A DNA stretch of 64,000 bases. It comes from Escherichia coli. Its GTDB lineage: Bacteria > Pseudomonadota > Gammaproteobacteria > Enterobacterales > Enterobacteriaceae. This document shows, piece by piece, positions 63,014 through 63,131 of this stretch. The position numbers and the translations under genes are program-made. The stretch lies in assembly GCF_046105845.1 (NCBI RefSeq), contig NZ_CP151004.1; one strand, written 5' to 3'. The notes beneath the pieces are model-generated. The model searched no databases. It saw only the letters and a program-made list of their open reading frames with translations, and was not told the DNA's origin. The stretch's first letter is position 1; every line of letters starts with the position of its first letter.

Positions 63014-63099
63014 CCTTTCTTTTGCAGCAGACTGGCAGGAGTGCGAGTCTGCTCGCATAATCAACACTCATTCCTTGTGGTTTTAATATTGCAACTATG

Positions 63100-63115
63100 C
63101 TGTATATAAAAACAG
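63100..63115 (+). promoter_or_regulatory. LexA (SOS) box upstream of sbmC
   Basis: CTGTATATAAAAACAG matches the CTGT-N8-ACAG LexA consensus, 17 bp upstream of the sbmC start. Confidence 0.8.
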
Positions 63116-63131
63116 TGTTAATGGAGGCGTC

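Follow-up and report, generated by a model that had tools for sequence, protein, structure and literature searches.

The LexA operator of sbmC (gyrI) in an Escherichia coli strain and its unusual outer flanks

The DNA upstream of sbmC (gyrI) in a 64,000-nucleotide stretch of Escherichia coli (the window) carries a palindrome of the LexA type, and the locus raises the question whether this palindrome is the SOS operator of sbmC, whether it lies over the promoter of the gene, and in what way it departs from the K-12 reference. Since 1995 sbmC has been counted among the SOS genes, and its box is found in the standard tables of the SOS regulon; the gene is reportedly also included in the ChIP-chip study of Wade (2005), and the heterology-index tables of Fernandez de Henestrosa (2000) are likewise said to include it. 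The features of the locus are the following.

61841-63013, + strand: dacD (PBP6b), the upstream neighbour of sbmC (NCBIfam NF008489 equivalog, 846.8 bits)
63023-63057, + strand: stem-loop just past the dacD stop codon (RNA fold of -22.9 kcal/mol, z = -2.86)
63098-63117, no strand assigned: LexA (SOS) operator, a 20-mer (sequence reading, weight matrix, conservation, and the K-12 allele in PMC3009722 Table 4)
63124-63128, + strand: Shine-Dalgarno sequence GGAGG of sbmC (sequence reading; invariant in all orthologue upstream regions)
63132-63605, + strand: coding sequence of sbmC (gyrI), a DNA gyrase inhibitor of 157 aa (ORF list, NF007451, 1JYH, and RefSeq annotation of matching loci)

The downstream gene had been named as the gyrase inhibitor sbmC in a preliminary description of the window, and that identification is unambiguous. 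The ORF at 63132-63605 matched the NCBIfam equivalog NF007451 with 301.6 bits (cutoff 179) over residues 1-157 of 157, and matched PDB 1JYH_A ('DNA gyrase inhibitory protein') over residues 1-157 with E=1.4e-105. The protein encoded in the window differs from K-12 SbmC at six residues (E9D, S39N, G73N, Y74N, T90S, and D141E, K-12 residue first) and at none from that of E. coli strain 135. The gene order, with sbcB on the opposite strand followed by dacD-sbmC-yeeA, is as in E. coli K-12, and 5,418 of 5,426 complete E. coli genomes match the region at 97-99.6% identity. The dacD-sbmC intergenic region is 118 bp long, and within it the box ends 14 nt before the sbmC ATG and 6 nt before GGAGG. A four-codon mini-ORF (ATG GAG GCG TCA TGA, 63121-63135) overlaps the Shine-Dalgarno sequence and, through an ATGA overlap, the sbmC start; it is probably incidental. 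The stem-loop at 63023-63057 is invariant in 8 E. coli sequences. It was rejected as an intrinsic terminator, since it has no U-tract and was absent from the output of the terminator scan; it may be a 3'-end or stabiliser element of dacD rather than a canonical terminator, and it may shield sbmC from dacD read-through. Scanning 62800-64000 against Rfam at E<=1 returned only a meaningless snoRNA match (E=0.99) and thus gave no evidence of a structured RNA in that interval.

The preliminary description had placed a near-perfect SOS operator at 63100-63115. These coordinates were exact: the 16-mer core CTGTATATAAAAACAG, of the form CTGT-N8-ACAG, occupies 63100-63115 within the 20-mer TGCTGTATATAAAAACAGTG, and the sequence runs from TTGCAACTATG through CTGTATATAAAAACAG and TGTTAATGGAGGCGTC into the sbmC ATG. 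The term 'near-perfect' is fair for the core, whereas positions 2 and 20 in the outer flank depart from the consensus TACTGTATATATATACAGTA, which the 20-mer matches at 16 of 20 positions. Gammaproteobacterial LexA boxes require inverted CTG motifs 10 bp apart (PMC5999292), and 63100-63115 is a perfect match to this pattern, with two inverted CTG motifs exactly 10 bp apart; the spacer is AT-rich and the score lies in the range of proven sites, while the flanks, for which TA is the consensus, read TG/TG. The half-site spellings TGCTGT and CACTGT are both present in proven operators, those of lexA and dinB (PMC3009722).

CTGT-N8-ACAG occurs once in the window, at 63100-63115, and 0.68 occurrences per window are expected, at least one being found in 51 of 100 dinucleotide shuffles. 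A chance rate of about 0.7 per window led us to reject the bare core motif as evidence, and a test of the full 20-mer was therefore needed. For this we used a strand-symmetrised position weight matrix of 20 positions, built from 17 aligned E. coli SOS boxes (PMC3009722 Table 4) with sbmC left out. Matrix scoring, the check that had been proposed for this site, gave 23.5 bits for 63098-63117, and the runner-up position in the whole window reached 9.3 bits, 14 bits below the operator, which is the sole LexA site in the 64-kb window. The maxima of 100 dinucleotide-preserving shuffles were 11.2 +/- 2.6 bits and none equalled the operator score; the highest single shuffle reached 23.28 bits, which puts the window-wide chance of the operator score at about 0.01. 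On the same matrix the 17 proven operators span 13.3-27.7 bits, and the window site scores above most of them, those of recA, sulA, lexA, uvrD, and dinB among others. When umuD, or also recN, dinD, and istR2, was taken out of the training set, the operator still scored 22.1-23.1 bits. The Berg-von Hippel heterology index of the window operator was 4.7, against 1.8-11.9 for proven sites, and these indices, which come from the same 17-site matrix, are not comparable with published values based on the Lewis 1994 matrix.

Conservation was examined by a protein-guided scan with one genome per species, which yielded 13 loci of about 3.4 kb each, and the best matrix position was taken in each. Of 12 enterobacterial loci, 10 have a LexA box at 14-20 nt upstream of the sbmC ATG, namely those of two E. 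coli lineages, E. albertii, E. whittamii, Escherichia sp. E1V33, two Kluyvera species, and three further Enterobacteriaceae. The boxes in these loci scored 15.9-25.5 bits and the second-best positions at most 9.9 bits, with a margin of at least 8 bits in each locus. The arms are kept while the spacers vary (ATATAAAA, ATAAAAAA, ACAAAAAA, ATGAAATC, ATATATAT, and ATATTTAT) and the sequence around the box has diverged. In the three further Enterobacteriaceae the left arm is degenerate (TCGTGT, ATATGT), so conservation there is mainly that of one half-site. Matrix score and phylogenetic footprinting of the sbmC orthologues both bear out the first reading of a LexA-type operator upstream of the gene.

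Some loci have a different arrangement. In Intestinirhabdus alba the best LexA-like box (17.0 bits, at about 1315-1334 of the locus) is located 166 nt upstream of sbmC, and the immediate upstream region is GC-rich and has no box, which indicates a different promoter architecture. Deletion of the box was seen only in the locus of Escherichia sp. MOD1-EC7003 (1409-1800), where sbmC itself is truncated: a 17-bp deletion from just past the left CTG to the Shine-Dalgarno sequence removes the operator, and deletion has likewise taken away the sbmC 3' half and the spacer between sbmC and yeeA, so that loss of the operator and decay of the gene go together. In about 280 E. coli genomes the match covers less than 80% of 62900-63700. 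In one of these strains, ET826, the match is confined to the region downstream of sbmC (window 63589-63700), beside an 'Arm DNA-binding domain' (integrase-like) gene, a pattern that suggests a mobile-element insertion or replacement at the sbmC locus in some strains. In E. coli strain 258E, sbmC is annotated as a frameshifted pseudogene (433-905 of the extracted locus) and the right flank of the operator reads ACAGCA; this strain is another case of sbmC being dispensable in some lineages.

The K-12 sbmC (gyrI, b2009) box, TACTGTATATAAAAACAGTA, occupies the same locus as that of the window, shares its 16-bp core, and lies equally far (14 nt) from the ATG, and the K-12 intergenic region is otherwise the same as the 118 bp of the window except for a few polymorphic positions. 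K-12 has A in place of G at operator positions 2 and 20, C in place of T at 63119, and T in place of A at 63088. The K-12 20-mer scores highest of the SOS boxes of UV-induced genes (PMC3009722 Table 4), and the umuD box of the E. coli umuDC operator is identical to it. The window box has the 16-bp core in common with umuDC, but the flanks of the window box differ and read TG...TG; the two operators also serve different functions, umuDC encoding a translesion polymerase and sbmC a gyrase inhibitor, and stationary-phase control is an additional feature of sbmC relative to umuDC (PMC5999292). Salmonella Typhimurium sbmC likewise has a single box near the ATG, but slightly further from it, at 21 nt, and with a higher heterology index, 6.32 on the scale used in that study (PMC8072944 Table 1).

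Whether the box also covers the promoter, as first proposed, depends on the position of the -10 element, for which two candidates are apparent.

63096-63101, + strand: candidate -10 TATGCT, overlapping the left operator arm (position deduced from sequence)
63105-63110, + strand: alternative candidate -10 TATAAA in the operator spacer, part of the best sigma-70 hexamer pair in Escherichia sequences (likewise deduced)

For TATGCT a possible -35 is TTGTGG (63075-63080) with a 15-bp spacer, and for TATAAA the options are TTTAAT (63082-63087, 17 bp) and TTAATA (63083-63088, 16 bp). Every plausible -10 hexamer falls between box-2 and box+11. In Kluyvera and RIT714 the best -10 (TATACT or TATCGT) is located at box-2, with TTGTCT or TTGCCG as the -35 at 18 bp. 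The K-12 counterpart of TATGCT is TATACT, which lies inside CTATACT (corresponding to 63095-63101 of the window) around the left operator arm, a sequence that we take to resemble a sigma-S-type extended -10. A generic promoter scan returned no + strand promoter at the box, the TATAAA pair falling below the scan threshold; its promoter and terminator matches (63032-63061 on the + strand and two on the - strand, including 63121-63094) were set aside as chance-level, 3 being found against 1.3 +/- 1.4 expected.

We found no mapped sbmC transcription start and no direct LexA ChIP data at sbmC in the accessible literature. Tiling-array data are available for K-12: the 100 nt listed as preceding the UV-induced sbmC transcript start with AGGCCTGACC, with an intergenic probe spacing of 7 nt (PMC3009722 Table 8). 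Since AGGCCTGACC corresponds to 63006 of the window, the 5' edge of the K-12 UV-induced transcript is at about 63106, inside the operator at the 7-nt resolution of the array, and this edge fits the -10 candidate TATGCT at 63096-63101. Geometry, hexamer scoring, and the array data indicate that the box likely overlaps the promoter, in agreement with the preliminary description: all of the -10 candidates touch the box and the transcript edge falls within it. LexA bound to the box would, on any of these promoter models, lie over the -10 and start-site region.

The inducibility by DNA damage that had been expected from the box is documented for K-12 and Salmonella. sbmC is listed in a table of LexA-regulated E. 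coli SOS genes (PMC6590174), its transcript is UV-induced (PMC3009722), a sbmC promoter-GFP reporter responds to UV (PMC5999292), and Salmonella sbmC is induced 3.55-fold by nalidixic acid (PMC8072944). We favor a scheme of the following kind, which is drawn from established SOS biology, the direct contribution of the present analysis being the sequence, the statistics, the position, the conservation, and the identity of the gene. A LexA dimer would bind both CTGT/ACAG arms atop the -10 and start region of the sole promoter between dacD and sbmC, and in undamaged cells it would occlude the promoter and exclude RNA polymerase. Once DNA is damaged, RecA filaments formed on single-stranded DNA would stimulate self-cleavage of LexA, the operator would be vacated, and sbmC would be transcribed; SbmC binds gyrase and limits the gyrase-mediated DNA breakage to which microcin B17 and further DNA-damaging agents give rise.

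One could envisage that LexA has only a minor part in this control, sigma-S and H-NS dominating sbmC expression in stationary phase and the box providing a small SOS overlay. The CTATACT sequence over the left arm in K-12 looks like a sigma-S -10. sbmC is also under stationary-phase control by RpoS and H-NS according to the literature, regulation by H-NS being reported in the title of Oh et al. 2001 as cited in PMC6231494. The UV response of sbmC was biphasic with a larger late peak, and the gene was left out of the analysis of LexA kinetics in that study, where an alternative sigma factor was suspected (PMC5999292); LexA is thus not the sole regulator of sbmC. The induction in Salmonella, at 3.55-fold, was also modest enough to be cited on this side (PMC8072944). 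However, stationary-phase control is compatible with LexA repression and does not exclude it, and the sequence puts the operator with the strongest ones known and the box is conserved, which argues for selection on LexA control. We consider the dominance of sigma-S and H-NS unlikely, and retain LexA repression as the basis of the SOS response of the gene. Dual regulation, by the SOS system and by RpoS/H-NS in stationary phase, is nevertheless one of two nuances that the earlier reading did not contain; the other is that the flanks of the operator are unlike those of the K-12 reference.

The differences in the flanks concern two positions.

63099, + strand: operator position 2, with a rare A-to-G change that turns TACTGT into TGCTGT (alignment and genome matches)
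63117, + strand: operator position 20, commonly polymorphic (A/G) and read as ACAGTA or ACAGTG (alignment)

Position 63099 is A in 7 of 7 sampled E. coli genomes. A 41-bp query carrying G, designed so that the base falls within each of its 28-mer seeds, had exact 28-mer matches in just 11 of the 5,426 complete E. coli genomes, and these 11 represent several different haplotype backgrounds. Among 8 aligned sequences the right flank reads GTG in 4, GTA in 3, and GCA in 1, and the 16-bp core is invariant in the same E. coli alignment. Relative to K-12, the allele of the window costs about 3.7 bits (27.2 to 23.5) and raises the heterology index from 2.2 to 4.7 on the 17-site matrix. Position 63099 belongs to a candidate -10 as well as to the flank of a LexA half-site, since G turns CTATACT into CTATGCT. 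In E. coli Z1323PEC0012 (locus about 630-647) the operator 20-mer is the same as in the window and the ribosome-binding region is AATGGGACGTCATG rather than AATGGAGGCGTCATG, which results in a weaker GGAGG Shine-Dalgarno sequence.

These observations allow for the view that the operator is real but that G63099 and G63117 weaken LexA binding or alter the -10, so that expression or induction of sbmC is measurably unlike that in K-12. The loss in matrix score and the rarity of G at 63099 are in keeping with it, and so is the comparison with E. coli strain 135, the complete genome nearest to the window: of 801 bases (62900-63700), 3 are different, and two of these are the outermost positions of the operator, 63099 and 63117. 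There is also a precedent in Salmonella, where a single SNP in the yebG box alters how large the ON subpopulation is (PMC8072944). Against it, 23.5 bits is still a higher score than this matrix gives to the operators of recA, sulA, lexA, and uvrD, E. albertii and 'E. coli' E69 normally have TGCTGT, the 16-bp core is unchanged, and with three SNPs neither a case for selection nor any statistical claim can be made. A measurable effect of the allele is, in our judgement, doubtful, slightly more so than dominance by stationary-phase regulators. Judged by its sequence, the TG...TG allele stays within the range of functional operators and would still bind LexA, probably somewhat more weakly.

The remaining reading, that the palindrome is a chance occurrence in an AT-rich promoter, or an AT tract of the H-NS or UP-element type, with no action of LexA, is scarcely credible, because the expected 0.68 bare cores per 64 kb, the one shuffled window at 23.28 bits, and the H-NS regulation announced in the title of Oh et al. 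2001 are outweighed by a 20-mer that exceeds 100 of 100 shuffles and the rest of the window by 14 bits, by CTGT/ACAG arms that stay in register before sbmC across genera while spacers and flanks diverge, and by a K-12 allele that equals the umuDC operator and was recovered upstream of a UV-induced gene (PMC3009722).

Based on these results, we conclude that 63098-63117 is almost certainly the LexA operator that serves sbmC (gyrI), an SOS gene of E. coli. The operator is real, was correctly read, and was already known, the minor new detail being its allele, and the finding has little import beyond annotation, except that it shows that regulatory logic can be correctly read from raw sequence. 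A more speculative proposal, which we regard as improbable, is that variation in the outer flank at 63099 and 63117 tunes the LexA off-rate, the overlapping -10, or both across strains. If this were true, strains would differ in the basal or induced level of the gyrase inhibitor, and hence in tolerance to microcin B17, quinolones, and other DNA-damaging agents, and the location of two of the three SNPs in the operator flanks would reflect selection and not chance. The natural alleles catalogued here, with TA or TG on the left, GTA, GTG, or GCA on the right, and one deletion linked to gene decay, provide ready variants for the effects of the flanks on LexA kinetics.
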